41,067 nucleotides of DNA, taken from positions 1 to 41,067 of the forward strand of contig CATLBX010000003.1 in the NCBI GenBank assembly GCA_949879855.1, in the 5' to 3' direction. This DNA comes from an uncultured Coriobacteriia bacterium (GTDB lineage Bacteria > Actinomycetota > Coriobacteriia > Coriobacteriales > QAMH01). Made by a program: the position numbers and the translations under genes. How positions within the stretch are numbered: position 1 is the first letter of the stretch; each line of letters starts with the position of its first letter. The notes below the pieces were generated by a model. It did not search any database. It saw only the letters and a program-made list of their open reading frames with translations, and was not told the origin of the DNA. Below, piece after piece: positions 3,001-29,050 of the stretch.

Positions 3001-6000
3001 GCCAACTCCGGTTACGCGTTCGACCACTGGGAAGACGAGTTCGGCAACGTCGTCATGTACGACGCCACCAACAAGGCCCCGGCGCACCTCGTGCCGCCGC
3101 GCAACGCCGACGGCGTCTTCGTCGCGACCACCTACACGGCCATCTTCGTCGCCCTGCCCGTCGACTACACGGTGCAGCATTACAAGGTCGACCGCTACGG
3201 CAACGTGACGCTCGTCAGGACCGATACCGACCAGGCCTACGCCGGCACCACCGTCACCGCCACGCCCATCGACACCACCGCCGACGGGCTGTGGGCCGGC
3301 TACACCTACGCGCCCGGCCACTCTGGCGAGGTCTCCGTCGGCGTCGTCATGGTCAACCCCACGCTCGTCCTCAAGCTCTACTACACTGCCAACTCCGACA
3401 CGCCCTACGTCGTGTATCGCTACCAGCTCGACGGCAACGGCGTGTTCACGCAGCTGCCCAGCGAGAGCTACACCGGCTACACCGACGACACCGTCACCAC
3501 GACGCCCAACGTGCCGGTCGGCTACCAGCTCGTCGCCGACGGCACCTACGCCTCCGGCATCCTGGCCGGCATCCCGACGCAGCTCGCCACCCAGCTCGCC
3601 GGCATGTTCACCGGCGACGGCAAGCTCGTCCTCATCCACGTCTTCGAGGCCGTCAAGGTCCAGTACGTCGTCAACTACTGGAAGATTCCGGGCTCGGCCC
3701 TCACCCAGGGCGACCCGCTGTCCTTCAAGGCGCCGGCCGCGCCGAGCCAGACCTTCTACGACTACACGGGCGTGAGGGTCACGGCCGTGCCGCCTTCCAT
3801 CCCCGGCTACACCTACGTGCTGCCCAGCGCCCATCGCGAGATGTACCCCAGCGTCGACACCGGCGTGGTGCTCGGTGACGGCACGCTCGTCCTCAACCTC
3901 TACTTCGAGGCCGACTACCACACGCTCACCCTCGTTCCCAACACGGGTGCCGGCGCGGGCACCTGGGCACCCGGTTACTCGGCCTTCGGCTCGACGCTGC
4001 TGCGCAGCGAGACCGAGACTACGCTGCCCACCACCACGCACCTGCGCAATCCCGGCTACACCTTCAAGGGCTGGGCCACCGAGAACGGCGGGGCCGTCGT
4101 CCACGCCCCCGGCGCGACCATCGCCATCGGTACGGCCGACATCACGCTCTACGCCGTGTGGGAGGCCAACACCGATACGCCCTACACCATCGAGCGCTAC
4201 CAGCTCAACGCCGATGGCACCATCACCAAGCTGCCCAACCTGACGGGCACGGGCACCACGGGCGAGTCGGTCACCACCGTGCCGGTCGCTCCCGATGGCT
4301 ACCAGGTTCCCACCACCGACTACATCACCGGCCTGTGGGACGGCAACCCGGTCTACCGCATCGACGAGATTCTCACCGGCGTCATCACCGGCGACGGCAA
4401 GCTCAAGCTCGTGCACGTGTTCATCCCCGTGGCGGGCAACTACGTCGTGAAGATCTTCAAGGTCGATGGCATGGGCAACGCCATCCAGGTCGACGTGGAC
4501 GGCAACGAGCTGGCCGCGGGCGACGTGCTGCTCGAGGGCTACAAGCATGCCGGTGCCGTCGGTTCCAACGTCATCGTCGACTCCGCGAGTGCCACCGACA
4601 CCCCCGGTTTCATCTACCACGCCTACGCTTCCAACCCGCCCCGTGGCTACAGCTACCTGGGCGATGCCGTGAGCTTCGTTGTCAACGGCAAGACCTACCT
4701 CACCATCGCCTCGGGCGTGATCGGCGACCAGACCCTCGAGCTCGTCATCTACTTCGAACCCAACACCTACGAGCTCACCTACGTCACCGGCGATCCCACC
4801 GATCCGGATGCGGGCAAGTGGGTCGGCGCGGGCGACTCCTCGCCGGCCACGCAGTTCGGCTACGAGCTCAACGTGCCCGCCAACGGCACGCTGGCCGTGG
4901 TCACCCGCACGGGCTACGAGCTTCTGGGTTGGACCACCGTCGCCACCTACAGCGTGCGCGCCGATGGCACCATCGTCGCCGCCGGCACCGACGGCCTCGA
5001 CGTCAAGGAAATCGTGAACGCCCGCGGCCAGGAGGCCATCGACGTCGCCACCTGGCTCGCCACCCTGGCGGCCGGCACCTACTACGCCGCGGGCGACACC
5101 TTCAAGATGCCGGCCAACGACATGAGCCTCTACGCGGTGTGGACGCCCACGCTCACCAACTACTACGTGAACCGCTACAGCGTGGCCAAGGATGGCTCGG
5201 TCACCCTCATCGACTCGGTGACGCGCACCGCTCCCACCCACACCACGGCTGCGGCCACCGATGCCGACAAGGAGATCGTCGGACAGTTCTACCGCGTCCC
5301 GGGTGGCGCGGAGCCGTCCAGCATCGACTCGGTGCTCATCACGCCCGATGGCCTGGCCATGATCAAGCTGTACTTCGACGTCACCGCCGACACCGAGTAC
5401 ACGGTCGAGTTCCTGCGCTACACGGGCACCGGTCTCATCGAGCCCATCAACGCCTTCAAGGCCAACGCGACGAGCGCGGGCGGCGCGGCCGTCTACGACG
5501 AGACCGCCACGGCCAATCCGTCCGGTGCCGACACCAACATGCTGCTGTTCAGGGGCTACGCCAACACGCGTATCTACGTCGACCAGAACGGCACCGACAC
5601 GCAGCTCATCTACTACAACAACTGCCTGGCCAAGATCGCGGCGGCCGCCATCACCGGCTACGCCTACGATGCCACCTTCTCCACCGTCATCGACGGCAAG
5701 ACCTACACCACGATGGCCACGGGCATCATCGGCGCCGGCGGCGCCCTCAAGCTCACGCTCGTCTTCGCCGCGCAGCAAAACGACCTCATCTACGATGTGA
5801 ACGCCGCCGAGGATGCGGCCAAGGGCAACGCCGGCTGGGTCATCTCCGACCAGTCGCCCAAGCCCGCCCCGCGCACCGGCAGCACCGTCACCCTGCCCGA
5901 CGCCACGACGCTGTACCGCTTCGGCTATGTCTTCGGTGGCTGGAACACCATGGCCGACGGTTCGGGCGACACCTATGCGGCCGGCGCGAGCTTCGTCACC

Positions 6001-9000
6001 GGCAACACCGCCCAGACGCTCTACGCCGTGTGGACGCCGGGCAACGCCGACTACTTCATCGACTACTACAAGGTGCGCGGCGATGGTACCGTCGAGCTCT
6101 ATGATTCCGTGATCCTGACGGGAATCACGGAGCGGACCGTGACCGTCACCGACGAGCAGAAGAACTACCGCATTCCCGAGGGTTACGCCTATGCCGCCGG
6201 CCATAGCGGCGAGGTCCTTTCGGGCGTCGTTACCGGCTGGTCGGGCAACAGGGCGGGCGACACCTCGGGCGCGCTGCACCTCAAGCTCTACTACGAGCCC
6301 ACCAACAGCACCGAGTACCGCGTCGTGCGCTGGGCCGCCACCGGTGACGGCAAGCTCGTGGCCGTCGACGCCAACGGCAACCTCAACTTCGACATCGCCC
6401 TCGAGCCCACTGCCGACGGCAGGCTCGTGCAGCTCGACGCCAAGGGCAATCCCGTTGCCTGGCTCAACGCCGACGGCACGCAGTACGTCATCACGTCCAC
6501 CGAGCATCGCCAGGTGTTTGATGCCGACGGCAATCCCGTCCGACAGCCCGTGATCGGCGAGGACGGCAACCCCGTCAAGGACGAGAGCGGAAACGTCGTC
6601 TACGAGGACGTCTACGAGGACGTTACCGTCTACAACGTCCAGTACCGTTATTGGTCGCTTCTGCCCAACGGCTCCGTCGTCCCGCTGGACGTGGCCGGCA
6701 TCGTCGACGCGACCTTCGGTGCGAAATTCCTCGATGGCAATGGGTGCATCACCTCCACGCTCGACGGCGTCACCTACCACCTGCCGGCGTTTGCCACGCC
6801 GTTCCTCATCGTGCACGCCAACGGCAAGGCCGACGCCATGGCCAATGCCGCCGCGACGACCGATGAGGTCACGGCCAATCCCAACGTCAACGCCCACGAT
6901 AACGTCGCGATCCAGGGCTTCGAGTTTCTGGTGCACGGTTCCACGACGCGTCTGGGCGATGCCGCCGAGACCAAGGTCACGACCGTGGCCCAGGGCTCCA
7001 TCGCCGCCGACGGCAGCCTCGTGCTCACGCTCTACTACTACGCGGTGCGCTCCATGCTCACCTTCGACCCGGGCACCGGCGCCGATGGCAGCACCGTGGG
7101 TAGCTGGTTCAATGGCGAGGACCTTTCGGCCGAGTACATGCCCAACGAGGTCGTGACGCTGCCCACCGGCACCAACCTGCGCCGTCCCGGCTACACGCTC
7201 GCCGGTTGGACCACCATCAAGAACTTCGTCGAGAACATGGGGACAGACCCCCGCTTCTCGATCGGCTCCGACGGCGACAGCCTCGTGGGCGTCGCCATGG
7301 GCCAGACGGCCATCGACCTGCAGGCCTGGCTCGCGACGCTCGGTGGCCAGTACTTCACCACCACCTTCACGATGCCGCGCGGTGCGACCACGCTGTATCC
7401 GGTGTGGCTGCCGCGCAACGACACCGTCTACACCGTCGAGTACTACAAGCATCGCGGCGATGACACCGTCGTGCTCGATGCCACCGTCCAGTACACGGGC
7501 ATGACCGATACGCTCGCCAAGGCCGGCCTCGTCTCCACGGGCATGGTCGACGGCGTCGCGGTCGATGACGTGAACCGCTACGGCACGGCCTTCTACAAGC
7601 TCGTCGACAAGGACGGCAATCCCGTCCTCACGGTGACCGACAAGAACGGCAAGGTCTGGACGGCGCTTCTCAGCTTCAACATCGCCGCCGACGGCTCCAC
7701 CGTCCTCAAGGTCATCTACGAGGCCCAGGAAATCGACTACACCGTCATCTGGTACAAGTTCACCGGTAACGAGGCCTTCGTCGAGGCCAAGACCGAGACG
7801 CGTCGCGGCCTGGTCGACGGCCCCGTGTCGGTCACCGATGCCGACCTCAAGGTCGCCTTCGACGGCTACAAGTACTATCCCGGCTTCTCGCTCAGGGGCC
7901 AGCGCGAGCTCCTCTCCGCCGACATCGCCTCCGACGGGTCCACCATCCTCAAGATCTTCTACGAGGCCCAGGACGTCACGCTCTTCCTCGACCTCGGCAG
8001 CTTCGGTGCCTGGTCGGGCCAGGAGCACGACGCCGACAAGTACAAGGCCGACCGTACGGTCAAGCTCTCCACGCTCGTCGAGCGCCCCGGCTATGACTTC
8101 ATCGGCTGGGCTTCCATCGCCGACGGCAAGGATACGAAGGGCAGCGCTTCGATCACGTTGGCCGATGCGATGCTCAAGGCGCTCAACGACGCCATCGCCG
8201 CCGGCACGACGACGCTCGATGCCAACGGCAACATTGTGTTCGCCTATGATGGCTCCGGCATCACCCTCATCCTCGCCAGCGGCGACGGCAACTACACGCT
8301 CGGCGCCGTCAACGTCACGCTCTATGCGGTGTGGAAGGCGCGCAACGATAGCGTCTACACCGTGCAGCACTACCGCGTCACCGGCGACGGCACGCTCAAG
8401 CCGGTCATCACCGATACCTACACGGGCATCACCGACGATCCCATCAACGTCAGCGCCGAGCATTACGACTACGTGGCGGGCACGGGCAACACGGCGGGTA
8501 ACGTCGCCGCGTTCCAGGGCTACGCCTACGCCCCCGGCTTCAGTAAGGTAATCGGGGGACAGACCCTCGCCGAAATCGCCGCGGGCACGATCCTCGCCGA
8601 CGGTTCCCTCGTGCTCAAGCTCTATTACGAGGCCATCGACCAGTCCATCACGCTCAACACCGGCGCGGGCGCGTGGAACGGTAGCGAGAACTTCTACAAC
8701 GCCACCTGGAACGCGGACAAGACGCAGGGCGTCGATAACACCGTCAAGACCGAGACGACGCTCACCGTTCCGAGCCGCGATTCCGCATCGCGTCCGGGCT
8801 ACACGCTCGTCGGATGGACGACGATTACCACCTACGACATCGTGGGCGGCAAGATCACCGCCGGCTCGCGTTACAACATCGCCGACGCGACCGGCCAGAC
8901 CGCGCGCGACGTGGTTGCGTGGCTCGAGAGCCTCAACGCCGCGCTCGCCGCCAATCCCATCACGGGGGGGACAGACCCCAACGCCGGACGCCAGTACTTC

Positions 9001-12000
9001 GCCTGCGGCACTTCCTTCGTGCTGCCGGCCGGTGGTGCGACGCTCATCGCCGTGTGGCAGGCCAACACCAACACGACCTACACCGTCGAGCACCATAAGC
9101 TCGTGATGGATGCCGCCGGCAACGTCGTCGACACGATCGTGCTCACCGAGAACCTCACCGGCATCACCGACGAGCAGGTCACGGGCATCGCCCAGACCTA
9201 CGCCGGCTACACCTTCGTGGCCAACGGGCAGACGGCCTACCCCGGCCAGGCCTACGTGACCTTCGCCCAGGGCACCATCGCCGGTAACGGCAGCCTCGTG
9301 CTCAAGCTCTACTACCGTGCCAACACCAACACGAAGTACACGGTCGAGCGCTGGATCGCGAGCGCCGACGGCAAGCAGCTCACCAAGGTCGACGAGAAGG
9401 TCCTGACGGGCACCACTGACACCTCCGTCACGCCCGGCTCCACCAATCCGCTGGGCTACACCCTCGATAACAGCTTCGTGCCCTCCACGATCTCGGGTAC
9501 GGGCGCGTGGCCCAACGCGGCCATTCCGACCGCCATCATCGCCGGTGACGGCACCACGAGGATCATCCAGTTCTACGTGCCCATCGACGTGCTCTACACC
9601 GTCGAGTTCTATCGCTACACCGGTGACGGCAAGGTCCTGCCCTTCAATGGCTTCGAGGCCAGCGCCGGCAAGAACTACGCCGAGTTCATCGCCGGAGGGT
9701 CTGTCCCCGTCTTCATCGCTGGCACCTCCACCGGTGCGGCCACCAACGTGATCAAGGGCTGGGGCAAGACCTCCTCGACGCTGTCGGTCGACCGCCCCGC
9801 CGGCATCAGCGCCTCGGCCGGATTCACCTACGCGCACCTCAACCTCTCGGCCGCCGAGAACGCCAACTTCATCGGCTACACCTATGACGAGGCCTTCGAG
9901 CAGGTCATCGGTGGCGTCACGTACAAGACGATCGCCCAGGGCGTCATCCTCGCCGACGGCAGCCTGGTGCTGAAGCTGTTCTACGTGCCCGAGACGCTCT
10001 CGGTCACCTACAACACCGGCAGCGCCTCCACGACGGTCACCTTCCAGAAGAACCACACGTCGGAGTCGACCTTCAAGCTGCCGCTCGAGACCACCGAAGG
10101 TCCGGTCGTCGACCGCGCCGGGTACACGCTGGTGGGCTGGACCGTCGCGAGTCACTACACCGGGTCGGGCACGGCCGAGAGCCCGTTTGCGCTGGCCGCC
10201 GCCAACGCCGCCGGCGCCAAGTCCATCAGCGCCGCCACCGGCTACGAGGCCCAGCGCCTCGCCGCCTGGCTCGCAACGTTGGGGACAGACCCCGACTTCG
10301 CGACGCATTGGGGACAGACCCTCACGCCCGATCTGGCCGCCCAGATGGGCAAGACCTACTACGCTCAGGGCTCGTCCTTCAAGATCGGCGTGCTGTCGAT
10401 GAACCTGTACGCGGTCTGGACGCCCACGGGCACCACCGAATACACGGCCGACATCTACAAGATCAAGGGCGACGGCACGATGGAACTCGTCGGCACCAAG
10501 ACCTACACCAACGGCGTTGCCGACGAGGACACCAACACGCTGGCCAAGCTGCCTGCCCAGAGCAGCGCGGACGTCTACGACAAGTCGCTCGACACCGAGT
10601 TCGGCCTGGCCGGCTATCGCTGGGTCGCCTCCACCGAGGATGGCCAGACCATCGACGCCGGCATGCCGGCCAACACCATCGCCCACGCCATCGTCAGCGC
10701 CAACGGCACCACCAAGCTCATCTTCATCTTCAGGGCCATCGAGGTCGAGTTCCAGGTCAAGCGCTACCGCGTCGACGGCGACGGCAACATCATCGAGGTC
10801 GATGTCGACGGCAATGACATCACCGACGATGCCACCGCCAAGCGCTTCACGCACAAGGGTCTCACCGACGCCAACGTCAACGTGACCGCCACGGCCGATG
10901 ACATGGCCGGCACCGATGCCAGTGGCTTCAAGGGCGGCTGGTACTACTTCATCGACAACCTCGACAACGTCGGCATGGTCACCGCTCTCGACGGCAGCCT
11001 CATCGCGGCCTTCACCTATGACGCGACCTACGCCGGCAACCTGTCCACGGGCGTCATCGCCGGTGACGGCAGCCTCGTCCTCAAGCTCTTCTACCTGCCC
11101 GGCAACTTCACCTTCGCGCTGGATCCCGGTGCCGGCACGTGGGGGACGGACCTCTTCGACGCGGCCCAGACCCAGGAGGGCACGCTCGAGACCACGACGA
11201 GCATCTGGTATCGCCACTACGGTGCCAGCACCACCATCACGCTTCCCACGGCCAGCGAGCTCACGCGCGAGGGCTACGTGCTCGCGGGCTGGATGGTCGG
11301 CAACGACGTCGAGAACGCGATGCGCTTCGACGTGCTCGGTCCGGTCATCACCTACACCATGCCGGTGGGCGAGGTCATGCTCAGGCCGATTTGGACCGGC
11401 CTCGAGACGGCCTACATGGTCTATCACGTCAAGGTGCGCGGCGACGGCACGCTCGAGTACTACATCGGCTCCAACAAGGTGGCCGCCGGCACCGGCGAGA
11501 TCGTCCGCGGCACCACCGGCCTGACCGCGCAGGTGACCGCCAACAGCTACGCCGGCTACGAGGCCATCGCCGACCTCGTGAGCTACACCTACGTTGGCGC
11601 CGACGGCATCAGCCACACGGTCACGACGGCCGCCAACGTGCTCATTGAGTGGGGCGGCGCCTTCGACGGTGTCAACAAGGGCAAGACCGCGGTCTACATC
11701 TACTACAAGCCGCTCGTCGTGAAGTACACGGTCGAGCACTGGGCCATCTCCGGCGACGGCACGCTCTACGCCATCGACGCGGACGGCAACCTCCTGCGCG
11801 ATGCCAACGGCAACCTCGTGGCGAGCCCCAACGCCGTGCGCGGCGAGCACGAGGGCTACTCTGACGCCCACATCTACGTCCTAGGGTCTGTCCCCGCTGA
11901 TGCGGTCGCGGGCACCTACACGACCTATAGCCCCTGGAGCATCGCCGGTTACGAGTACGTGCTCGGCACCATCGCGAGCATCAACGGCAAGGGTCCGTGG

Positions 12001-15000
12001 ACCGATGGCATGCTGACGAGCGGCATCTACGTCGCGCCCGACGGCACGCTCGTCCTCAAGCTCTACTACGTCGCCAAGAACCTGACGCTCACCTACGACC
12101 CGGGCGCCAACGGTTCCATCACCGCCGGTGGCAATCAGGGGACAGACCCCGTCGATGTCACGCATCGCGCCGACCACACCTTCAAGCTGCCCGCAGCCAC
12201 CGATGAGAAGCTCACCGTGAGCCGTCCGGGCTACGTGCTCAAGGGCTGGACGACGCTCATGAGCTACGGCGTCGCCGCCGATGGCAGCATCGTCTCGGCC
12301 GATACCGCCGGCGCCATCGTCAAGCTCATCGCCGACGCCAAGGGCGCCGAGGCCGAGGCCGTCATCGCCTGGCTCGAAAAGCTGGGGACAGACCCCCAGG
12401 GCCGTCCGTACTACTACCTCAACGGCGCGACCTTCCTCATGCCCACCGCCAACGAGACCCTGTACGCGGTCTGGACGCCGCGCTCCGACATCGTCTACAC
12501 CGTCGAGCACTGGCTCATCACCGGCGATGGCACCTTCTCGCCGCTGGACAAGAACGGCAACGTCATCCGCGACGCCAACGGCGCGCTCGTCACCGGCACG
12601 CCCAACACGAGCGCCGACGCCTCCGACACCACCAACGCGGCCTACCGCGTCACCTACAACAACGGCAAGTCCGACGTCGTCTTCGACCTCGACGCCATCG
12701 GCGGCTACACCCGCACGGTCGCCGGCTACACCTACCTGCTCAACAACGCGAGCTTCACCATCGCGGGCGCGACGGGCACCACCTACGCCGTGAAGACGAT
12801 CAGCGCCGACGGCAAGACGGTCTTCTACCTGTTCTACCGTGCCAACGAGAACACGATCCGCTTCGAGGTCGGTTCGCTCGGCACCATCGACGGCGGCACG
12901 CTCGACGCGACCGAGAACGTCAACTTCATCACGCAGAAGCACTACACCGACGACAGCTTCGACCTGGCAGATGTTCCCACCCCGACGCGTCCCGGCTACG
13001 ACTTCCTCGGCTGGACCATCGCCGACAAGAAGGGGACAGACCCCATCAACGACGCGATGGGCTACACCGCCCAGCAGATCGTCACCTGGCTCGAGGCCCA
13101 GAACGCGGGCAAGGGGACGTACCTCAAGCTTTTCTTCAAGTCGGGCACGAACTTCACCTACCTCACGCCGACCGGCGACATCATCCTGCGCGCCGTGTGG
13201 ACGCCGCAGCTCGTCGACTACACGATCAATCGCTGGAAGGTCACCGGTAACGGCGACAAGGTTGAGCTCGACTCCGTCACCTACAAGGGCTACGCCGACA
13301 CCGAGGTCCGCTTCGATGCCGCCAAGACCGAGTACAAGGACGGCATCACTTACCTCAAGGTCGACGTGCCCACGGGCTATCGCTTCCTGGCCGCGGGTAC
13401 GAGCGAGATCTACACCGGCACCAACAAGCTGACCCAGTCGTTCAGGACCGACGCCTACGGCAACGTCCTTCCCAACGGCACGGCGAAGTTCACGCTCTGG
13501 TACCTGCCGAAGACCTTCAAGCTCGAGCTCGAGCTCGGCACCTTGGGTACCTGGAACGACACCACGACGGGCACCAACACCGGCACGCTGAAGACCGTCG
13601 AGTATGACGCGGAGTCCGTCCACGAGATGCTCGGCTACCTCTCCGCGAGCCGTCCGGGCTATACCCTCGTTGGTTGGTCGTCCAGCGACTTCAGCGCGCT
13701 CAAGGGCGAGGCGTCGCAGGCCAAGTGGCTCGAACTCGCCGCCTCGGTTGTCGGCGCGGACTGGGTGCGCGTCACCACGGTCCTGAAGTCCGATGCCACG
13801 GGCACGTCGCTGACCGGCTACACCTACGCCTACATCGCCAACAGCTACGAGAACATCAAGTACATGTACACGATGGGTCTCGCGGGCGTGAAGTTCTACG
13901 CCGTGTGGCGCGCCAACGACGACACGGTCTACTACGTCGACCACGTCCGCTGGGAGGGCAACAGCACCGCCAAGACCACCATCACCGAAGAGTTCCGCGG
14001 CATGACCGACAAGAACTACACGGCCACCCCGTTCAACACCATGCTCGCCGATCCGCGCTTCAACACCAGCTTCACCGGCTACGGCTACAACGGCACGGAT
14101 CCCAAGCCCAGCACGGCCACGAAGGCGGTCACCGGCGACGGCACCATGCGCATCACGCTCAACTACTTCGCCCAGAAGCTCAACCTCACGCTCGAGTCCA
14201 CCGGCGGCACCTGGTCGACGACCTGGAATCCCGAGCACCTGACCGAGTCGAGCTTCAACCTGCCGACCAACGCCGACATCAAGCGCCCGGGCTACACGCT
14301 CGTGGGCTGGTCGACCACCAATCCCGACGATGGCCTGACTGGCAACATCAAGGGCCTCGCCTCGCAGGTCAAGGCCGGCCAGCTCGCGGCGATCACCGGC
14401 AACGACACCGCCAACGGCGGCGCCAACTGGATCACGGTCGCCACGACTTCCGACGGCAAGACCTACGTCTTCGTCACGCCGGGCTACAAGATGCCAACGA
14501 GGGGACAGACCCTGTACGCCGTCTGGTACGCCAACAACGACACGAAGTACGCGGTCGAGCGCTGGGTCGTCTCCGGTGACGGCGTCCGCTACGCCCTCAA
14601 GGCCGACGGCACGCTCGAGCGCGACGCCAACGGCCTGCTCGTGACCAGTGACAAGGCCGACAGCGCTCATTCGCTGAGCTACGTGGGCACCACCGACGAG
14701 GAGGCGTGGGCCGACGCCATCGACGGCTCCATCGTCTACCGCACGAACGACACCCTGCTCACCATCACCGGCTACGCCTATGCCGCCGATGGCGAGACGA
14801 TCGTCGCCAAGGACGGCGTCGTGACGATTGGGGGACAGACCCTCAAGACCGACGCCCGCGCGACCATCACCGGCGACGGCAAGATGACCCTCGTGCTCTA
14901 CTTCAAGCCGCTGCAGTTCACGCTCGACTTCTACATCGGCGCGACGAGCACGCCCAACCTGAGCGCCACGCCGGCGCGGGCCACGCTCTATGCCGACCAG

Positions 15001-18000: not shown

Positions 18001-19776
18001 CAGGGCGCGATCGTGCTCGTGCGCGACAAGAACGGAAACGCCGTCCAGGAGACCGACGAGTACGGCAACCCGCTGTTCAATGCCGATGGCCTGCCCATCT
18101 TCAAGTACGCCTACCAGCCGGCCATCGACGCGTTCGGCACGCTGCTCGCCCGCGGCATCGAGTTCGACAACCTCAACGGCGACGGCAGCACGCACCTGCG
18201 CTTCTACTACATCGCCAACAACAACACGAGATACTACGTCGAGCGCTGGGTCATCACCGGTGACGGCACGCTCGTGCCGCTCAAGGCCGACGGCACCGTT
18301 CCCCATGACGCGAACGGCAACCTGCTCGTCCACGACGCGAAGTGGGCCGAGGGCCAGCGCCTCGTCTACGTCGGCTTCACCGGCGAGATGGCGTGGGCGG
18401 ACGGCGTCGACGCGAGCGTGACCTACCGTCATCTCGATAACATCCCGGTCCTGGGCTACACCTACCTCCCGCACGGCCAGAGCGTGACAATCGGGGGACG
18501 TACCTTCACGACCCAGGCGCGCGCGATGATCGCGGGCGACGGCTCGACGGTCCTGGTCCTCTACTACGTCTTCGACGAGTCGACCCTCGTCCTCGACCCC
18601 GCCAACGGCCTCTGGACCAACACCGATGGCAAGGAGGGGACAGACCCCGCATGGTCGACTGGCAACCTGGGGACAGACCCCGACGCGCCGCGCAAGACGC
18701 TCGAGCAGCTCATCGCCGAGCAGATCGCCGCCGCTACCAAGGTGCTCTATGCCGCCGGCGGCAACATCGCCCTCGACGATCCGCGTCGCCTGCCCATCAC
18801 GCTCAAGTACGGCACCGATGCCCAGATCATGCTCCCGACCGCCGACCAGCTCCTGCGCAACGGCTACGTTCTCATCGGCTTCGTCGACGGCAACGGCAGG
18901 CAGTACGCGCCCGGCTACATCTTCACGATGCCCAGCTCCAGCATCAGGCTCATGGCCCTGTGGGCTCCCATCATCTACACCATCACCTTCGACAAGAACG
19001 ATGACGTGGCGACCGGCGCCGCGCCCGAGCAGCGCTACGAGTACGGCTCGGCGGGGACGCGCCTTGACGACGTCGATTTCGAGCGCCGCAACGGAACGCT
19101 CCTCGGATGGGCGTTCTCGCCCGACGCGGCCAGGCCCGACTTCACCGTCGGCCAGCTGATGTCGGCCCTGCTCGAGAGCGGCGTGCTCGGCCTCGTGAGG
19201 GGCGATGGCATCGACGATCCCGCGACGGCCATGTACCTGCTCGCGGCCATGGCCGGCAATGGCGGCAACGCCATCAAGCTGTATGCGATCTGGGACGTCG
19301 AGCGCCACGTCGCGGGCCTCGAGGGCTTCGAGCCCGATGTCGATGACTTCGGCCACTTCGTCACCGAAGGCGAGTATCCGGGAGGCAAGATCACGATTGA
19401 TTCGGATGGCGTCGAGCCGGGCTTCACGCTCTCGCCCGATGACGTCCTGATCGAGCTCAACCCGGACTACTACATCAAGGGCTGGAACGTGATTCGCGAT
19501 GGCGTGACCACTTACATCGAGGGCGCCGACGCGATCTTCTCGGTGACGATGGACAGTGACGTGATTTTCGCCCCGGTCTTTGGCAACTATGCCGAGGAGG
19601 AGGCCGAGGAAAGGGCACGTTACCTCGCGCAGCTCGCTGCGTACGGGACGCCCAGGACCGGTGATGACGTCATGGGCACGATGGGTCACGAGGCCGCGGT
19701 CGGGCTGCTGGCACTCCTCATTCTGGTTCTGCTCATCCGCCGTCGCAGGCAAGAGACGCCAAGCCGGGGACGATAG
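1..19776 (+). CDS. Giant cell-wall-anchored surface protein/adhesin, 5'-truncated by the window edge; Listeria-Bacteroides (InlB B-type) repeats alternating with MucBP-like modules
   Basis: Frame 1 is open from nt 1. Codons 1-7 (PGRGWYL) already continue the repeat signature, so the GTG at 22 is not the true start. The stop is TAG 19774-19776. By eye there are roughly 25-30 copies of the signature (R)PGY.(L/F).GW...DG....Y..G......LYA(V/T)W. Between them are paired ~90-130 aa modules that begin ..Y.V..(Y/W)...GDG and end DGS.VL.LYY. The C-terminus has a TPRTG motif, a hydrophobic helix and an RRRR tail. Confidence 0.9.
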   Translation, partial: PGRGWYLVGWDVTYVTGDGSVNTQTGLDVNAPATFQILGPTTFLARWKEAIIVNYLPGDHAADGAFPDPAVENETIFTHVAPLGKFPAYANSIGALPEGAVDADGASWYFAGWEIHWKLRGQEGYVGDAVSIFQVDLSQVADLTVVFPGKAEGDERVYDIDVIALWAPADYYVIFDANEPEGADAHTGIMPPKQGFLFDSKIALTNNAYVVSGYTFAGWNTKADGTGTSYADGAVTGILESFSDWFSTDPEKTLKLFAQWTAKTYDVTVDLRDGAPGTLSAGTSGVKDFIAQTITLGTASHVVYVATETYGVGVESAINLVVNKGYRLAGWEWSAVKDDGTTVTGTVTVDDGDANFGLGKLTVLGTVTAYAVFEQLSSVSYLPGDHGNWTGTATTGGTGTFFDDIRIGSAVPTFGTGNDALLVDVPGLGKLPGADDDSNWLFNGWRGSDGKVYANYVIPTDVLVTAGGMTFTALWVAKDQTLTLNANGGAFANGTADTITAIAKTDVTLPGTTDVVLTGWILDGWSLAAGGAILYAPGETIKMPTAPTTLFAHWKQDYVEVSYEVKADGSNYYGHITGPAGAGNGIVWVEQTVSDPRGTYVPAYADPSYDKLVNIKGTQSLSAVSGDALDPANLSNMLYAGPFTLTANAFEGYRFVRWVDEDGNEVSTNPSLLVTRDTLTGRYKAHTYYAIFAELESVTIDYTVSDSNVVWVDFATEAVPPVSGNPRTNVAHVSAGYVIEGWYDAAGNKVGSGDSFTPSRGADGMYVAGSYVVRVIPKTDTPFVIEYWLQDTTGAFVKDAASTVNGTGSTDLVLTINADGTISGVPADGVITLPAGNLILSFAGHSFSASASTLTGAIAADGSLALKLYYTNNTLTNPTIIYNAGTGGSVTLGSEQIDITVTPIPSPIGSTPVAAPGYQFSHWQVGDDPDMQLNIGISSLFTPPTPDGGWLEKTVYAYTAIFIELPSITINYVAGTGGSVSLGSESVRPATGTPAGSLATANSGYAFDHWEDEFGNVVMYDATNKAPAHLVPPRNADGVFVATTYTAIFVALPVDYTVQHYKVDRYGNVTLVRTDTDQAYAGTTVTATPIDTTADGLWAGYTYAPGHSGEVSVGVVMVNPTLVLKLYYTANSDTPYVVYRYQLDGNGVFTQLPSESYTGYTDDTVTTTPNVPVGYQLVADGTYASGILAGIPTQLATQLAGMFTGDGKLVLIHVFEAVKVQYVVNYWKIPGSALTQGDPLSFKAPAAPSQTFYDYTGVRVTAVPPSIPGYTYVLPSAHREMYPSVDTGVVLGDGTLVLNLYFEADYHTLTLVPNTGAGAGTWAPGYSAFGSTLLRSETETTLPTTTHLRNPGYTFKGWATENGGAVVHAPGATIAIGTADITLYAVWEANTDTPYTIERYQLNADGTITKLPNLTGTGTTGESVTTVPVAPDGYQVPTTDYITGLWDGNPVYRIDEILTGVITGDGKLKLVHVFIPVAGNYVVKIFKVDGMGNAIQVDVDGNELAAGDVLLEGYKHAGAVGSNVIVDSASATDTPGFIYHAYASNPPRGYSYLGDAVSFVVNGKTYLTIASGVIGDQTLELVIYFEPNTYELTYVTGDPTDPDAGKWVGAGDSSPATQFGYELNVPANGTLAVVTRTGYELLGWTTVATYSVRADGTIVAAGTDGLDVKEIVNARGQEAIDVATWLATLAAGTYYAAGDTFKMPANDMSLYAVWTPTLTNYYVNRYSVAKDGSVTLIDSVTRTAPTHTTAAATDADKEIVGQFYRVPGGAEPSSIDSVLITPDGLAMIKLYFDVTADTEYTVEFLRYTGTGLIEPINAFKANATSAGGAAVYDETATANPSGADTNMLLFRGYANTRIYVDQNGTDTQLIYYNNCLAKIAAAAITGYAYDATFSTVIDGKTYTTMATGIIGAGGALKLTLVFAAQQNDLIYDVNAAEDAAKGNAGWVISDQSPKPAPRTGSTVTLPDATTLYRFGYVFGGWNTMADGSGDTYAAGASFVTGNTAQTLYAVWTPGNADYFIDYYKVRGDGTVELYDSVILTGITERTVTVTDEQKNYRIPEGYAYAAGHSGEVLSGVVTGWSGNRAGDTSGALHLKLYYEPTNSTEYRVVRWAATGDGKLVAVDANGNLNFDIALEPTADGRLVQLDAKGNPVAWLNADGTQYVITSTEHRQVFDADGNPVRQPVIGEDGNPVKDESGNVVYEDVYEDVTVYNVQYRYWSLLPNGSVVPLDVAGIVDATFGAKFLDGNGCITSTLDGVTYHLPAFATPFLIVHANGKADAMANAAATTDEVTANPNVNAHDNVAIQGFEFLVHGSTTRLGDAAETKVTTVAQGSIAADGSLVLTLYYYAVRSMLTFDPGTGADGSTVGSWFNGEDLSAEYMPNEVVTLPTGTNLRRPGYTLAGWTTIKNFVENMGTDPRFSIGSDGDSLVGVAMGQTAIDLQAWLATLGGQYFTTTFTMPRGATTLYPVWLPRNDTVYTVEYYKHRGDDTVVLDATVQYTGMTDTLAKAGLVSTGMVDGVAVDDVNRYGTAFYKLVDKDGNPVLTVTDKNGKVWTALLSFNIAADGSTVLKVIYEAQEIDYTVIWYKFTGNEAFVEAKTETRRGLVDGPVSVTDADLKVAFDGYKYYPGFSLRGQRELLSADIASDGSTILKIFYEAQDVTLFLDLGSFGAWSGQEHDADKYKADRTVKLSTLVERPGYDFIGWASIADGKDTKGSASITLADAMLKALNDAIAAGTTTLDANGNIVFAYDGSGITLILASGDGNYTLGAVNVTLYAVWKARNDSVYTVQHYRVTGDGTLKPVITDTYTGITDDPINVSAEHYDYVAGTGNTAGNVAAFQGYAYAPGFSKVIGGQTLAEIAAGTILADGSLVLKLYYEAIDQSITLNTGAGAWNGSENFYNATWNADKTQGVDNTVKTETTLTVPSRDSASRPGYTLVGWTTITTYDIVGGKITAGSRYNIADATGQTARDVVAWLESLNAALAANPITGGTDPNAGRQYFACGTSFVLPAGGATLIAVWQANTNTTYTVEHHKLVMDAAGNVVDTIVLTENLTGITDEQVTGIAQTYAGYTFVANGQTAYPGQAYVTFAQGTIAGNGSLVLKLYYRANTNTKYTVERWIASADGKQLTKVDEKVLTGTTDTSVTPGSTNPLGYTLDNSFVPSTISGTGAWPNAAIPTAIIAGDGTTRIIQFYVPIDVLYTVEFYRYTGDGKVLPFNGFEASAGKNYAEFIAGGSVPVFIAGTSTGAATNVIKGWGKTSSTLSVDRPAGISASAGFTYAHLNLSAAENANFIGYTYDEAFEQVIGGVTYKTIAQGVILADGSLVLKLFYVPETLSVTYNTGSASTTVTFQKNHTSESTFKLPLETTEGPVVDRAGYTLVGWTVASHYTGSGTAESPFALAAANAAGAKSISAATGYEAQRLAAWLATLGTDPDFATHWGQTLTPDLAAQMGKTYYAQGSSFKIGVLSMNLYAVWTPTGTTEYTADIYKIKGDGTMELVGTKTYTNGVADEDTNTLAKLPAQSSADVYDKSLDTEFGLAGYRWVASTEDGQTIDAGMPANTIAHAIVSANGTTKLIFIFRAIEVEFQVKRYRVDGDGNIIEVDVDGNDITDDATAKRFTHKGLTDANVNVTATADDMAGTDASGFKGGWYYFIDNLDNVGMVTALDGSLIAAFTYDATYAGNLSTGVIAGDGSLVLKLFYLPGNFTFALDPGAGTWGTDLFDAAQTQEGTLETTTSIWYRHYGASTTITLPTASELTREGYVLAGWMVGNDVENAMRFDVLGPVITYTMPVGEVMLRPIWTGLETAYMVYHVKVRGDGTLEYYIGSNKVAAGTGEIVRGTTGLTAQVTANSYAGYEAIADLVSYTYVGADGISHTVTTAANVLIEWGGAFDGVNKGKTAVYIYYKPLVVKYTVEHWAISGDGTLYAIDADGNLLRDANGNLVASPNAVRGEHEGYSDAHIYVLGSVPADAVAGTYTTYSPWSIAGYEYVLGTIASINGKGPWTDGMLTSGIYVAPDGTLVLKLYYVAKNLTLTYDPGANGSITAGGNQGTDPVDVTHRADHTFKLPAATDEKLTVSRPGYVLKGWTTLMSYGVAADGSIVSADTAGAIVKLIADAKGAEAEAVIAWLEKLGTDPQGRPYYYLNGATFLMPTANETLYAVWTPRSDIVYTVEHWLITGDGTFSPLDKNGNVIRDANGALVTGTPNTSADASDTTNAAYRVTYNNGKSDVVFDLDAIGGYTRTVAGYTYLLNNASFTIAGATGTTYAVKTISADGKTVFYLFYRANENTIRFEVGSLGTIDGGTLDATENVNFITQKHYTDDSFDLADVPTPTRPGYDFLGWTIADKKGTDPINDAMGYTAQQIVTWLEAQNAGKGTYLKLFFKSGTNFTYLTPTGDIILRAVWTPQLVDYTINRWKVTGNGDKVELDSVTYKGYADTEVRFDAAKTEYKDGITYLKVDVPTGYRFLAAGTSEIYTGTNKLTQSFRTDAYGNVLPNGTAKFTLWYLPKTFKLELELGTLGTWNDTTTGTNTGTLKTVEYDAESVHEMLGYLSASRPGYTLVGWSSSDFSALKGEASQAKWLELAASVVGADWVRVTTVLKSDATGTSLTGYTYAYIANSYENIKYMYTMGLAGVKFYAVWRANDDTVYYVDHVRWEGNSTAKTTITEEFRGMTDKNYTATPFNTMLADPRFNTSFTGYGYNGTDPKPSTATKAVTGDGTMRITLNYFAQKLNLTLESTGGTWSTTWNPEHLTESSFNLPTNADIKRPGYTLVGWSTTNPDDGLTGNIKGLASQVKAGQLAAITGNDTANGGANWITVATTSDGKTYVFVTPGYKMPTRGQTLYAVWYANNDTKYAVERWVVSGDGVRYALKADGTLERDANGLLVTSDKADSAHSLSYVGTTDEEAWADAIDGSIVYRTNDTLLTITGYAYAADGETIVAKDGVVTIGGQTLKTDARATITGDGKMTLVLYFKPLQFTLDFYIGATSTPNLSATPARATLYADQTYTLPTSTVTRSGYTLKGWTNSQYASGVDAATIISDLKGIKSQNAYTAVSASTGRDAVTGKVFTAVTSGGQTLYIMPTGNVTLYATWRANDDTQYLVERWVVSGDGTRYAVTSDGKLIRDTNGKLVTSSTADASHVVKHVGITDEEAWADANVAGTSYRNDDSALTFAGYAFAANGETVIAKDGATAFTTIARKVITGDGKMVLVLYYKPKLNTITFNFGSGTSTGAPATMQVYTDQTVELSADAERTGYDLVGWSNVSTYSVKVDGATTATTVNVGTSKGLASQAAADAAKANTKRTSDKGAAFTAVTIGGQTLYIMPTDASITLYATWRAKSDTVFYVDRYKVTGDGVVVPIDANGKDLAALVSLRFTGVTDETATAGAKSGPKPWNTAAYGTLAGYYTIANGTSDRVMLKDGSGYVVMTTISAGVIAGDGSLHLVVYYFPLADRVLDLDVGDGTWEPGKESQYSGNKHATESSFTLPTNADVKRPGYTLVGWAIDKNGLMAAGKDTAKGAASQKSYLTLAAGKTGYIADGGAEWIAVISGYDASTFTYTFIGADDVIYVMPTNAKVMLRAVWRANDNTPYYVSRWGINGDGIAFPFKQDGTVDMNGDQIVIHDDPAWIKANYVVHYGITDEIAWADANVDGVSYRNADNIEVNGYRYLPTDDPAFDSIGGSLNTMARAVIKADGSMVLMLYYNAKDNITYSVYHVRVTGDGTVKNLVKQEFMKKNNSYVTVDNLDYNGLDDSRFLGYEYVDSIVINGVTYYSHIAGNVYDGLILYRYYKAIYDEGDKGIHLELNPGMGIWVNTGESTPSMIPGTSNSSHDTFAAETTITLPGADQLYRPGYEFVGWSDMPDGADAKGNYSVITSDHLMSVDPETGQYTDVLRALIMSLLSQRMEDAENRAIEVDGDNPTYKFLDHLYIAPDGKFLVPTKTIRLHAIWRARTDTKYTVSHWWVDQYGVAHEIEDSRLNLEGMTDENVYGSKLDDNHEAVAGYTYVKEYQGAIVLVRDKNGNAVQETDEYGNPLFNADGLPIFKYAYQPAIDAFGTLLARGIEFDNLNGDGSTHLRFYYIANNNTRYYVERWVITGDGTLVPLKADGTVPHDANGNLLVHDAKWAEGQRLVYVGFTGEMAWADGVDASVTYRHLDNIPVLGYTYLPHGQSVTIGGRTFTTQARAMIAGDGSTVLVLYYVFDESTLVLDPANGLWTNTDGKEGTDPAWSTGNLGTDPDAPRKTLEQLIAEQIAAATKVLYAAGGNIALDDPRRLPITLKYGTDAQIMLPTADQLLRNGYVLIGFVDGNGRQYAPGYIFTMPSSSIRLMALWAPIIYTITFDKNDDVATGAAPEQRYEYGSAGTRLDDVDFERRNGTLLGWAFSPDAARPDFTVGQLMSALLESGVLGLVRGDGIDDPATAMYLLAAMAGNGGNAIKLYAIWDVERHVAGLEGFEPDVDDFGHFVTEGEYPGGKITIDSDGVEPGFTLSPDDVLIELNPDYYIKGWNVIRDGVTTYIEGADAIFSVTMDSDVIFAPVFGNYAEEEAEERARYLAQLAAYGTPRTGDDVMGTMGHEAAVGLLALLILVLLIRRRRQETPSRGR
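3163..18960 (+). repeat. Intragenic protein-level super-repeat: one LB repeat followed by 1-2 MucBP-like modules, about 16-17 units of variable length
   Basis: The junction LYAVW(T/R/E)(A/P)N(T/D)DT.Y.V(E/D)(R/H)(Y/W) recurs, for example near 4150, 5140, 6030, 7400, 8330, 9050, 10410, 12470, 13195, 13900, 14520, 15255, 15985, 16725 and 17815. Units are diverged (neighbouring units about 50-60% aa identity by eye), so this is not a recent perfect DNA tandem repeat. Confidence 0.7.
7239..18681 (+). repeat. 16 in-frame copies of the GGGGACAGACCCC mini-hairpin element inside the giant CDS, plus 2 degenerate copies
   Basis: Core start positions are 7239, 8554, 8964, 9697(-), 10281, 10310, 11884(-), 12138, 12384, 13032, 14501, 14830, 15205, 15931, 18636 and 18669. 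Degenerate copies are at 11141 and 18493. They translate as GTDP or GGQTL in forward orientation and GSVP in reverse. I saw none in nt 1-7238. Confidence 0.85.
19645..19773 (+). other. Candidate sortase sorting signal (LPXTG-variant TPRTG, TM helix, positively charged tail)
   Basis: The C-terminal sequence is ..AAYG-TPRTG-DDVMGTMGHE-AAVGLLALLILVLLI-RRRRQETPSRGR. TPRTG is encoded at 19648-19662. Confidence 0.55.
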
Positions 19777-19778
19777 GC

Positions 19779-19938
19779 GGGGGACAGACCCTCGGCAGGC
19801 GGGGGACAGACCCCCGCTTCGTCCGCCGGTGAAAGAATGGGGACAGACCCCCGATTGCCAGCTCCCATATCCGCCGGTGAAAGAATGGGGACAGACCCCC
19901 GCTTCGTCCGCCGGTGAAAGAATGGGGACAGACCCCCC
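19779..19938 (+). repeat. Cluster of 5 mini-hairpin elements immediately after the giant gene stop codon
   Basis: Cores are at 19779, 19801, 19839, 19887 and 19924. The last three share the composite unit ccgccggtgaaagaatGGGGACAGACCCCCgcttcg, with 48- and 37-nt spacing. Confidence 0.9.
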
Positions 19939-20000
19939 GCTTCGAATCTCCGCATCTGCCCCCATGGTTCGCCCAAGCCCGTGTCGTCACGAAGCGATGC

Positions 20001-27684: not shown

Positions 27685-27747
27685 GGGTCTGTCCCCGGAT
27701 TACCAACATCATCCCATGGCGAAGGTCGTGACGAAGGGTCTGTCCCC
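27685..27747 (-). repeat. Two reverse-orientation mini-hairpin elements in the divergent intergenic region
   Basis: GGGTCTGTCCCC occurs at 27685-27696 and at 27736-27747. Confidence 0.9.
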
Positions 27748-27778
27748 TTTTTCCCAGAGAGACATTCAGGAGGAAATC

Positions 27779-29050
27779 GTGATTCGAAACGTCGATGGTG
27801 ATTCCGGCGCAAGCGAAGGTGCGCGGAGGTACCAGAATCCGGTGCTCGTGGGCATCGTCTTGCTCGTATCCGGAATATCGGTGGCGATGATCCAGTACAA
27901 GGTCCCCACCATCATGACGAATCTCATGGGCATCTTCTCGATGGATGCGGCGACGGCCTCGTGGCTCATGTCGATTTTCACGCTCGTGAGCATCTTCGTC
28001 GCGTTGCCCGCGGGTGCCCTTGCACAGCGTTTCGGAGCCAGGCGGATGCTCGTCGTCGCATGCGGCATCGCCATCCTCGGTTCGCTCGTCGGCCTTGTCT
28101 CCGAAACGAGCCCGATGCTCATCGTTTCGCGGGCGATCGAAGGCGCCGCGCTTACCATCCTCACGACATGCGGACCGATTATCGTCCAGCAGAACGTGAG
28201 TCCCGAGAAGGTCGGCACCTCGATGGGCATCTGGGGCATCTGGGGATGTCTCGGGTCCACCGTCGCGGCCGTTCTCACGCCGACCGTTTTCGGCATGTGG
28301 GGATTTGACGGTCTCTGGATCGCGTTTGCCGTGGTCAGCGGCGTTGCGGCTGTCCTCGTCCTGGTCTTTATCCGCAAACCCCCGTCCGCCCCTGCAGCGC
28401 CCGAGGGTCTGTCCCCCAATCGCCATGCGCCCCAGGGGTCTGTCCCCGCAATGTCAGATGGGGCAACGATTGTCGAGAAGCCGCGCTATCGCGACATGTT
28501 CTCCAGGGACATGTTCCTGTTCTTCGGGGCCTTCGTCGTCTACAACATCTGCATGCTCGCGATTCTGGCGTTCGTCCCCACGATTCTGCAGATGCAGGGC
28601 TTCGATCCGACGCTCTCGGGCATCATCAGCACGGCGCCCATGCTGCTCTCGATCATATCATCACCGCTCTTCGGAGTTGTCTCCGACAAGATCGGCCGCA
28701 ACAAGCCACTGCTGATCATCGCCATGCTCGTCATGGGCCCCTGCACGTTTTTGCTCTACACGCAGACTGGGCCGTTGCTCTGGGTGGGCGTCTTTGCGAT
28801 GGGGCTGCTCGGCATGGGCGGCATCGGTCAGTATCTCTCGGGATTCACGAAGCTGCTGCCGAGCCCCGACCTCGCGTCGGTGGGCATGGGAGTGCTTGTC
28901 ACGTTCCAAGGCGTCGGTCAGTTCCTCGGCACGTTTTTCGTGCAGATGCTCCTGGGGCCGCAGCTGACCGAATGGTGGTTTGCCGGCATGGTGCTCATGT
29001 TCCTCGGCTTCGTCGGCACGGCGCTCATCGCCCTGTGCAGGCTACGGTGA
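27779..29050 (+). CDS. MFS transporter
   Basis: I prefer the GTG at 27779, which lies 5 nt after AGGAGGA. The ATG at 27716 has no RBS and would translate through a repeat copy. The protein has 12 predicted hydrophobic segments and a central loop. The stop TGA 29048-29050 lies inside the GGTGACAA extension of the next repeat copy. Confidence 0.8.
   Translation: MIRNVDGDSGASEGARRYQNPVLVGIVLLVSGISVAMIQYKVPTIMTNLMGIFSMDAATASWLMSIFTLVSIFVALPAGALAQRFGARRMLVVACGIAILGSLVGLVSETSPMLIVSRAIEGAALTILTTCGPIIVQQNVSPEKVGTSMGIWGIWGCLGSTVAAVLTPTVFGMWGFDGLWIAFAVVSGVAAVLVLVFIRKPPSAPAAPEGLSPNRHAPQGSVPAMSDGATIVEKPRYRDMFSRDMFLFFGAFVVYNICMLAILAFVPTILQMQGFDPTLSGIISTAPMLLSIISSPLFGVVSDKIGRNKPLLIIAMLVMGPCTFLLYTQTGPLLWVGVFAMGLLGMGGIGQYLSGFTKLLPSPDLASVGMGVLVTFQGVGQFLGTFFVQMLLGPQLTEWWFAGMVLMFLGFVGTALIALCRLR
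28405..28447 (-). repeat. Two reverse-orientation mini-hairpin elements in frame within the MFS central loop
   Basis: GGGTCTGTCCCCC lies at 28405-28417 and GGGGTCTGTCCCC at 28435-28447. They encode ..PEGLSPNRHAPQGSVPAMS.. between the two six-helix halves. Confidence 0.85.

Follow-up and report, generated by a model that had tools for sequence, protein, structure and literature searches.

Rickettsia palindromic elements (RPEs) were reportedly described by Ogata and colleagues in 2000 as units inserted in frame in protein-coding genes. In-frame repeat insertions are indeed known from these elements (PMC10969869), and uptake sequences have been shown to enrich proteins in motif-driven peptides at poorly conserved positions (Findlay & Redfield 2009, PMC2817400). 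Repetitive extragenic palindromic (REP) sequences linked to REP-associated tyrosine transposases (RAYTs) are tied to Groups 2 and 3 of these enzymes in the main text of a study that analysed the genera Escherichia and Pseudomonas and leaves Actinobacteria unmentioned (PMC5581495). Here we analyse a stretch of 41,067 nt from an uncultured Coriobacteriia bacterium (contig CATLBX010000003.1 of assembly GCA_949879855.1; hereafter the window), in which a 12-nt motif, GGGGACAGACCC (the core), recurs between and within genes. The centre of the analysis is one repeat unit of a giant cell-surface protein gene, in which an extra loop carries two copies of this core.

The giant open reading frame (ORF) matches Pfam PF09479 (Flg_new) with 107.8 and 99.7 bits against a gathering cut-off of 27, its relatives are annotated “InlB B-repeat-containing protein”, and its product ends with a transmembrane segment followed by RRRR. 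Three of its Listeria-Bacteroides (LB) units had been set side by side in a preliminary description of this DNA, and that comparison stands: the unit of interest reads AAWLATL-GTDPDFATHWGQTLTPDLAAQMGK-TYYAQG, the one at about 5047–5094 reads ATWLATLAAG-TYYAAG, and the one at about 7324–7362 reads AWLATLGG-QYFTT. The roughly 23 additional codons of the first unit do carry, as had been claimed, two forward elements 29 nt apart, with cores starting at 10281 and 10310. Both lie in a 14-mer, TTGGGGACAGACCC (10279–10292 and 10308–10321), that has no other exact copy in the window. Because the spacing is 29 nt, the second core is read in another frame than the first, GGG ACA GAC CCC giving GTDP and TGG GGA CAG ACC CTC giving WGQTL. 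In an AlphaFold2 (AF2) model built from an alignment of six paralogous units (mean predicted local distance difference test score, pLDDT, 77.9), the conserved helix postulated before the loop is recovered as GYEAQRLAAWL (pLDDT ~93), and the extra residues (62–69) are modelled as two short helices before the strand YYA. The W and L of this helix are invariant across the six paralogs, and GTDP occupies the homologous post-helix position in three paralogous units.

Is the extra segment a gain or a remnant? Orthologous sequences were available at several distances: a conspecific metagenome-assembled genome, also of an uncultured Coriobacteriia (L001, 97.6% nucleotide identity, no indel in the giant ORF), a second lineage (L004–L008, ~81%), a third lineage (L003, 76–83%), and a distant colinear ortholog (L009/L010, 31.6% amino acid identity over residues 2325–4586 of the giant protein) in which no core was found in two overlapping loci of that contig (~9.9 kb). 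In the window, L001 and L004–L008 (seven sequences, two lineages) the unit has the long form, and the 29-nt spacing of its two cores is the same in all. The short form, lacking 22–23 codons, is found in L003 (ATGYTAEALVDALKAAGK-FWAQGSS) and in L009 (AKGYRANALKDALSAAGL-LYTTTF), so the case in which the segment would be ancestral and lost from the shorter units, raised in the preliminary description as what would refute the idea, is unlikely to apply. Helix and loop read ALKDALSAAG-LLY in L009 versus ALVDALKAAGK-FW in L003; the helix ALxDALxAAG, 8/10 identical between them, differs from the AAWLATL of the long form. Because L003 and L009 are both short, and two identical deletions would otherwise be needed, the short form is taken as ancestral and the long form as derived. 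These alignments show an extra loop that is, as far as they reach, derived, in frame and immediately past the conserved helix of one LB unit, and date it to the ancestor shared by the window and L004–L008 alleles. That it is a lineage-specific insertion is well supported by the same ortholog comparison.

The junctions of the 66-nt segment are TTG^GGG and ATG^GGC, with TGGG at both, the ancestral Gly codon being in effect duplicated; at the codon level the added DNA is GGG ACA ... CAG ATG, placed between TTG and GGC AAG, and one further codon differs (TYY versus FW), giving 23 codons in total (66–69 nt). On the left, the segment begins where the 11-mer of core 1 begins, within the ambiguity left by TGGG and the Gly codon. 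The two putative units measure 29 + 37 = 66 nt, inside the intergenic period range of 22–52 nt, and either unit alone would shift the frame while the pair stays in frame. As with RPEs, the segment is present or absent among orthologs, and it forms an in-frame stretch modelled with lower confidence behind a confident helix. Cores are moreover enriched in segments that are gapped in L009 (5/10 against a background of 10.5%, P = 0.002). When 57 doublets were scored against the doublet and its flanks, the best non-orthologous match was an array in a transporter gene of another relative, L014 (68–70 versus at most 59 for the other non-orthologous doublets). No donor copy was found in about 200 kb of clade DNA, and the flanks of the insert match those of the copies at 7240 and 31069 at 8–9 of 12 positions, which is not individually significant. 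Three further candidates were set aside. Tandem duplication as the source of the 69 nt was rejected, as the two halves are dissimilar beyond the 14-mers and a 9–12-nt CTSGCCGCC repeat. L004–L008 do not share the imperfect palindrome with 14-nt arms found at core 1 (z = -2.5), which is probably coincidental. A Logan contig, L002 (region 2020–2053), equals L004 up to the CAT before core 2 and then stops after 20 unrelated bases, with a 1-nt frameshift upstream; it was treated as a contig-end artefact at a repeated k-mer and not used as an allele lacking the second core.

The core itself is far too abundant for chance: for its 11-mer, GGGACAGACCC, about 1.3 occurrences are expected in the window and 56 are found (47 on the + strand, 9 on the - strand). 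The motif saturates the genome of this Coriobacteriia lineage at about 1.4 copies per kb. The 12-mer is present in 55 exact copies, two copies with one mismatch and two with two; since about 6 sites with up to two mismatches are expected by chance and 4 near-matches were found, decayed copies are essentially absent. The element can be described as this invariant core, which forms the tip of a GGGG/CCCC mini-hairpin, usually accompanied by a TG(A/G)CA box at -10 to -6. The extended intergenic consensus is gg-TGAcAA-N3-GGGGACAGACCC-YY, the upstream box being weaker than the core. A 4–5-bp GGGG/CCCC stem with an ACAGA loop is possible in all copies, longer stems of 9–12 bp in some only (24230, 31019, 8383 in L014 and 2386 in L017), and many copies fold no better than shuffled sequences. 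Most copies are intergenic, nearly every intergenic region of the window having cores, and about a third lie in coding DNA. Intergenic clusters have one orientation and spacings of 22–52 nt; a true tandem array with a 37-nt period spans 19802–19944, and the array that follows the giant ORF is shorter by two units in the conspecific L001. Searches for the repeat gave no Rfam match at gathering thresholds and, in the literature, only chance matches to unrelated primers for the 11-mer on either strand; viral contigs in IMG/VR held one isolated match and no sign of a phage association.

Several arrangements in the window deserve a description of their own. At 31053–31279, five more cores are arranged in tandem, with a period of 47 nt and, at 93% identity, a super-period of 94 nt. 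At 31019, directly past the stop codon of a LuxR-type gene, a lone inverted core sits within a 9-bp hairpin. The last six codons of a LarE-like gene (24218–24248, +; ..GGQTPN*) consist of a full box and core, and a 9-bp hairpin, AATTGGGGG/CCCCCAATT, spans its stop codon. The sixteen cores of the giant ORF are confined to 7240–18680, so that the first 7.2 kb (22–7239) are core-free and all sixteen fall in the following 11.4 kb. Unrelated to the core, a 9-nt tandem repeat, CTGGCGCAC, with about 11 copies and also 18- and 36-nt periods, occupies 33308–33438, just upstream of a molybdopterin oxidoreductase ORF.

Within genes, it is the DNA motif that dictates the peptide. In the giant ORF, GGG and GGA each account for 4% of Gly codons and ACA for 1% of Thr codons, and 8 of the 11 ACA codons lie inside cores. 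GTDP is encoded by the core GGG ACA GAC CCC in 8/9 cases, an exact encoding whose probability under the codon usage is about 2.5e-4, and GQT(L/P) is encoded by the core in 6/6. Among coding copies of the window and its relatives, orthologous copies being counted more than once, the core reads GTDP 23 times, GQT[LP] 20 times, GSVP 9 times and GLSP 3 times; two of the three frames per strand are in use, and the frames giving GDRP and VCP are never used. Cores diverge 2–4 times more slowly than their ±30-nt flanks (6.4% versus 18.7% against L003, P = 6e-5; 3.3% versus 12% against L012). In the extra segment, both cores and the TT that precedes each are identical in the window and L004, and the other positions of the insert differ. 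The core is thus kept intact at the DNA level and, in genes, is tolerated or created where it can be read as GTDP, GQT(L/P) or, in antisense, GSVP and GLSP. The upstream box is significant in 11/16 coding copies; it is not so in the cores of the extra segment, nor in the young copies that arose in situ at 8968 and 9697. In L004–L008, WLATL has become WLGTL (CTT GGC ACG TTG), an Ala-to-Gly change that completes the box TGGCA.

Two processes act on the motif in coding DNA: i) directional point substitution, which perfects near-matches, and ii) gain or loss of units in permissive loops. Most differences in the presence of a core in coding DNA are substitutions without an indel. At 8968, L004 has GGAACCGACCC, which still encodes GTDP, and L003 has GGCACCGACGT; the longer loop is there in both without the core and without an indel, and the step from GGA ACC GAC CCC, as in L004, to the GGG ACA GAC CCC of the window is synonymous. 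The loop near 8964 had been taken for a smaller version of the same insertion, a view that these synonymous changes in a pre-existing longer loop contradict; the other supposed small version, at 12384, fares no better, the site (12385) showing no length gain relative to L009. Changes in unit number are seen elsewhere. At the 18637/18670 doublet, L015 has a single GSDP and a 12-residue gap in place of the second core, and the intergenic array differs by two units between strains 97.6% identical. The transporter gene mentioned above, of the MFS (major facilitator superfamily) type (27716–29050, +), has membrane parts that share more than 90% identity across species and a central loop made up for the most part of antisense cores. 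The window has two of them (28405 and 28436, at a spacing of 31 nt, read GLSP and then GSVP), L012 also has two (spacing 37 nt), and L014 has four (spacings 30/32/34 nt, frames 0,0,2,0) together with 20 more residues, its first two units resembling each other beyond the core. Distant MFS orthologs, taken as an outgroup, are not informative on the polarity of these changes because the loop is variable in all of them.

On what the predicted genes suggest, a REP-type system appears to be the best family-level lead for the repeat. Downstream of the giant gene lies a RayT-like gene whose product matches Pfam Y1_Tnp with 25.5 bits (cut-off 23) and NCBIfam NF047646, “REP-associated tyrosine transposase”, with 74.3 bits (E = 9e-21), slightly short of the equivalog threshold of 80. 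A weak alignment (E = 0.21) matches the HUH (HFHIV) and Tyr (RYVWRNPV) motifs of this product to E. coli TnpA-REP (PDB 4ER8), and its more distant homologs are labelled RayT by JGI and NCBI. The order giant gene, 217-aa gene, RayT-like gene, MoeA is kept in L012/L013, L014, L015/L016 and L017, whose RayT-like proteins are 78%, 60%, 52% and 52% identical to that of the window; synteny with the giant gene and MoeA is thus seen in five lineages down to 52% identity, the pattern of a vertically inherited single-copy-like gene. Two or three cores per lineage stand 5′ of it (in the window inverted, at 20774 and 20818) and none between it and MoeA. The adjacency is not discriminating, because cores are found in nearly all intergenic regions. 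The most frequent 11-mer of these syntenic relatives is that of the core, L015/L016 (NCBI GCA_964435565.1 and Logan SRR29243426, respectively) excepted; these have in its place a one-base variant, GGGTCAGACCC (17 copies within 17.8 kb), and no A-version, and their giant protein has GSDP where others have GTDP. L017 keeps the A-version although its RayT is equally divergent. The position of the upstream box is constant (TG[A/G]CA at -10 to -6) and its sequence varies among species. In L012, the predicted product of the giant-gene ortholog (1–8894 of the locus, in the 1.19-Mb contig ERZ15609935 NODE_1) has 15,059 aa, over twice the length encoded by the window's ORF.

How, then, did a loop with two cores arise? 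We consider that the segment was inserted with both cores already present, as an element doublet, and put the probability of this at roughly one half. The inserted DNA would itself have been two repeat units (29 + 37 = 66 nt). Single units would have shifted the frame, and only a pair that restored it could have survived, which would be why the cores come as a doublet and in different frames. The pressure that keeps cores intact elsewhere would then have preserved both of them while the rest of the insert diverged. The agent spreading or maintaining the units would most likely be the syntenic RayT-family transposase of a REP-like system, and, given the many gains by point mutation in situ, a selection or conversion force at the level of the motif would have to act as well. 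Insertion of units is favoured by how densely the cores lie, by their differing frames, by the unit lengths and by the position of the left junction, and it has parallels in the MFS loop and at the C-terminal unit.

A number of observations weigh against this account. No fewer than five further cores in coding DNA were gained or lost by substitution, with no indel involved: origin in situ is documented at 8968, 9697, 13033, 15933 and at 14708 of L003, and loss at 12139 in L001. Accordingly, the earlier proposal of a doublet inserted into a permissive loop holds for the insertion after the helix and the low-confidence stretch it forms, and is weakened by these origins in situ as regards the doublet itself. 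The predicted coincidence of indel and element boundaries likewise holds on the left, where the segment begins at the start of core 1, and fails on the right, where it ends 26 nt past core 2. Neither core of the segment has the species' upstream box (position weight matrix, p = 0.13 and 0.09), and their downstream flanks are only marginally element-like (p = 0.09 and 0.05). No allele with a long loop lacking cores, or with one core, was found among the nine sequences compared, and hence it is by inference that we regard the loop as born with its cores. The giant gene is also a recombination mosaic, as seen when 6900–13700 is compared with L003 and L005: in 9294–10488 the nearest sequence to the window is L005, with L003 standing apart, in 10488–12800 the nearest is L003, and in 13100–13700 L003 and L005 are 96–98% identical. 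At 9699 and 10161, in the first of these blocks, L003 has two other loops that are shorter, by 42 nt and 33 nt, respectively; one of them is core-free in every lineage, and the other, whose core arose later, has it in the window only. With a mosaic gene, three lineages and one distant outgroup, the parsimony argument is not strong. As to the RayT link, the clusters are direct and not inverted, the minimal stem is only 4–5 bp, adjacency to the gene does not discriminate, and decayed copies are absent, unlike in typical REP populations.

Many of these observations would fit an ordinary expansion of the loop, by slippage or by gene conversion from paralogous units or other alleles, followed by gain of the cores in situ through substitution, under the pressure that perfects near-matches across the genome. 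This sequence of events is possible, although we consider it on the unlikely side. The two-step path, loop and then core, is documented at 8968 and 9697, and further gains and losses of the substitution type are found at 13033, 15933, L003-14708 and 12139 in L001. Both cores of the segment are core-only, neighbouring loops have expanded without cores, and near-matches to the core fall below chance expectation, as they would if near-matches get perfected; with GTDP after the helix in three paralogous units, the site may have been pre-adapted at the peptide level. Such a route demands, however, two independent gains within 66 nt before the window and L004 split, when about two per 6.9 kb are seen at comparable divergence. 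It must also accommodate the extra TT shared by both cores (the exact 14-mer unique in the window), their differing frames, an array-like spacing and a left junction that coincides with the start of a core.

Rather doubtful, in our view, is the reading of the repeat as a genome-wide recognition signal, akin to DNA uptake sequences (DUS) or a polar protein-binding motif, that arises by mutation and biased uptake, conversion or selection, the doublet merely marking a tolerant loop. To our knowledge, uptake sequences are not known in Actinobacteria. An exact 12-mer present about once per kb and almost without variants is what such a signal would look like, as are the species dialect and the change of WLATL to WLGTL that completes the TGGCA box in L004–L008. 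Coding copies arise by synonymous or permissive substitution, at poorly conserved positions and in two of three frames, as in Haemophilus and Neisseria (PMC2817400). Same-orientation clusters and tandem arrays such as the 47/94-nt array at 31053–31279 are foreign to known uptake sequences, however, and the strand bias of 47:9, the change of unit number in coding loops and the presence of the RayT-like gene do not suit them either; nor were competence genes seen in the 41-kb window.

An ancestral long form, from which L003 and L009 became short by deletion, for instance between the TGGG microhomologies or the CTSGCCGCC repeats, is improbable. TGGG does stand at both junctions, an imperfect direct repeat, CTCGCCGCC ... 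CTGGCCGCC, brackets the 69-nt interval, L003 is shorter at three loops of the block, and the mosaic structure makes the lineage tree uncertain. Yet two independent events with the same product would be required, in L003 and in an ortholog only 31.6% identical; the L009 segment is core-free, which makes an ancestor with a two-core loop unlikely; the L003/L009 helix ALxDALxAAG is not AAWLATL; and the paralogous units U1631 and U2390 are short. Selection for the peptides GTDP and GQTL themselves, as a turn or metal-binding motif of an adhesin with DNA identity as a by-product, can draw on the recurrence of GTDP after the helix in three paralogous units and is effectively excluded by codon usage and intergenic copies, since the rarest codons are used (GGG 4%, ACA 1%, GGA 4%), the 12-mer is mostly intergenic, the two cores encode different peptides and the dialect species has GSDP.

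Table 1. Positions of the giant gene, of the extra segment and of other core-bearing or associated features (window coordinates unless indicated)
Feature	Position	Strand	Remarks
Giant ORF, 6584 aa	22..19776	+	cell-surface protein of Listeria-Bacteroides (Flg_new / InlB B-repeat) units
LB-repeat unit with extra segment	9997..10431 (aa 3326-3470)	+	paralog alignment; AF2 model, pLDDT 77.9
Conserved insert helix codons GYEAQRLAAWLATL	10240..10281	+	AF2 helix residues 82-92, pLDDT ~93
Derived 66-nt (22-codon) segment GTDPDFATHWGQTLTPDLAAQM	10282..10347	+	absent from L003 and L009
Core 1, GGGGACAGACCC	10281..10292	+	read (L)GTDP
Core 2, GGGGACAGACCC	10310..10321	+	read (W)GQTL; 29 nt after core 1
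Core of unit U2926 (GGTDPNAGR)	8967..8978	+	made in situ by point substitutions
Core at 9697	9697		L004 has AGCAGTGTCCC
Core at 12139	12139		lost in L001 by point change, GGGACAGGCCC
Core of unit U4070 (WLEKLGTDPQGR)	12384..12395	+	also in L003 and L005
Core at 13033	13033		L003 has GGGACGGACCT
Core at 15933	15933		L003 has GGGACCAGCCC
L003-only copy	14708 (L003 coordinate)		L003 GGQTLYAIW versus window AGVKFYAVW; inside conserved final strand
Second doublet in the giant ORF	18636..18680	+	cores 18637/18670, 33 nt apart, both read GTDP
Intergenic array, five cores directly 3′ of the giant ORF	19780..19944	+	spacings 22, 37, 48, 37 nt
RayT-like Y1 (HUH) transposase gene, 265 aa, C-terminal helix-turn-helix	20999..21796	+	syntenic with the giant gene
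Two antisense cores, central cytoplasmic loop of MFS transporter gene	28405..28447	-	read GLSP, GSVP

What would these observations mean for the genomes concerned? If insertion of the doublet holds, the loop is a natural example of a non-coding repeat shaping a protein by in-frame insertion of units together with motif-driven substitution. A broader proposal, which we advance only tentatively, is that this Coriobacteriia clade possesses an undescribed 12-nt, dialect-bearing signal, neither a classical REPIN nor a classical uptake sequence, and that a strong directional force behind it at the DNA level rewrites protein loops. If so, the signal would recruit rare codons, switch GTDP to GSDP and complete its own box by an Ala-to-Gly change, and frame-compensating multi-unit arrays would expand in loops of unrelated genes (an adhesin, an MFS transporter, the tail of LarE). 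In practical terms, the motif accounts for the odd rare-codon peptides GTDP, GQTL, GSVP and GLSP in these proteomes, flags permissive loops and offers a sequence marker for the clade. It can also break short-read assemblies: the L002 contig ends at the second core, for which the repeated 14-mer is probably responsible.

Our literature search found no description of REP-like systems in gut-type Actinobacteria. HIP1 (GCGATCGC) of cyanobacteria, a perfect palindrome of 8 bp that has been linked to methyltransferases, has neither arrays nor a flanking box; it shares with the repeat described here a very short motif that is hyper-abundant in coding and non-coding DNA and maintained at the DNA level. 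RPEs resemble it in being in-frame repeat DNA at permissive ORF sites that adds peptide and is polymorphic in presence among orthologs. They are, however, palindromic units of about 100–150 bp, similar to miniature inverted-repeat transposable elements and each with a family-specific peptide, whereas here the units measure 22–50 nt around a 12-nt invariant core, two frames and both strands are used, many copies exist without insertion, and the similarity is limited to the 12–14-nt cores and a weak resemblance of the flanks, so that no full RPE-like copy of 100–150 bp is seen.

Uptake sequences of Neisseria (DUS) and Pasteurellaceae (uptake signal sequences, USS) are likewise exact 9–12-mers present about once per kb that inflate the frequency of the peptides they encode, occupy poorly conserved positions in particular frames, accumulate by point changes and differ as lineage dialects, and in all these respects the present repeat behaves like them. 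It departs from them in its same-orientation tandem arrays (22–52-nt spacing) and 47:9 strand bias in place of single dispersed copies or inverted terminator pairs, in its use of rare and not preferred codons, in the variation of unit number in coding loops and in the RayT-like gene. The resemblance to REP/REPIN-RAYT systems (Bertels & Rainey 2011, PMC3116915; Bertels et al. 2017, PMC5581495) lies in a short, hyper-abundant, mostly extragenic and clustered repeat, in a hairpin-capable core with a conserved 5′ box and species-specific variants, and in a Y1 HUH gene of the RayT family that is single, syntenic and vertically inherited; repeats lie beside this gene, as they do in nearly every intergenic region of the window. 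The differences are direct clusters instead of inverted doublets, an obligatory stem of only 4–5 bp, a 12-nt invariant part of which decayed copies are all but missing, a share of about one third of the copies in coding DNA, several of these made by point substitution, and an actinobacterial host (Coriobacteriia).

We do not assign the repeat to the REPIN or the uptake-sequence family, because the defining features were examined and others were found: clusters of one orientation (47 +, 9 -) with a direct doublet at 10281/10310 in place of inverted doublets, and 16 copies in the giant ORF, with others in the MFS loop and the LarE tail, in place of an extragenic distribution, as far as REPINs are concerned, and arrayed, strand-biased copies in place of dispersed, unbiased ones for uptake sequences. 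One very short motif thus unites RPE-like insertion with uptake-sequence-like enrichment of peptides, a combination for which we found no prior description in this actinobacterial clade. The description that fits the repeat best is that of a REP-like, RayT-associated system which, in coding DNA, behaves like an uptake sequence.

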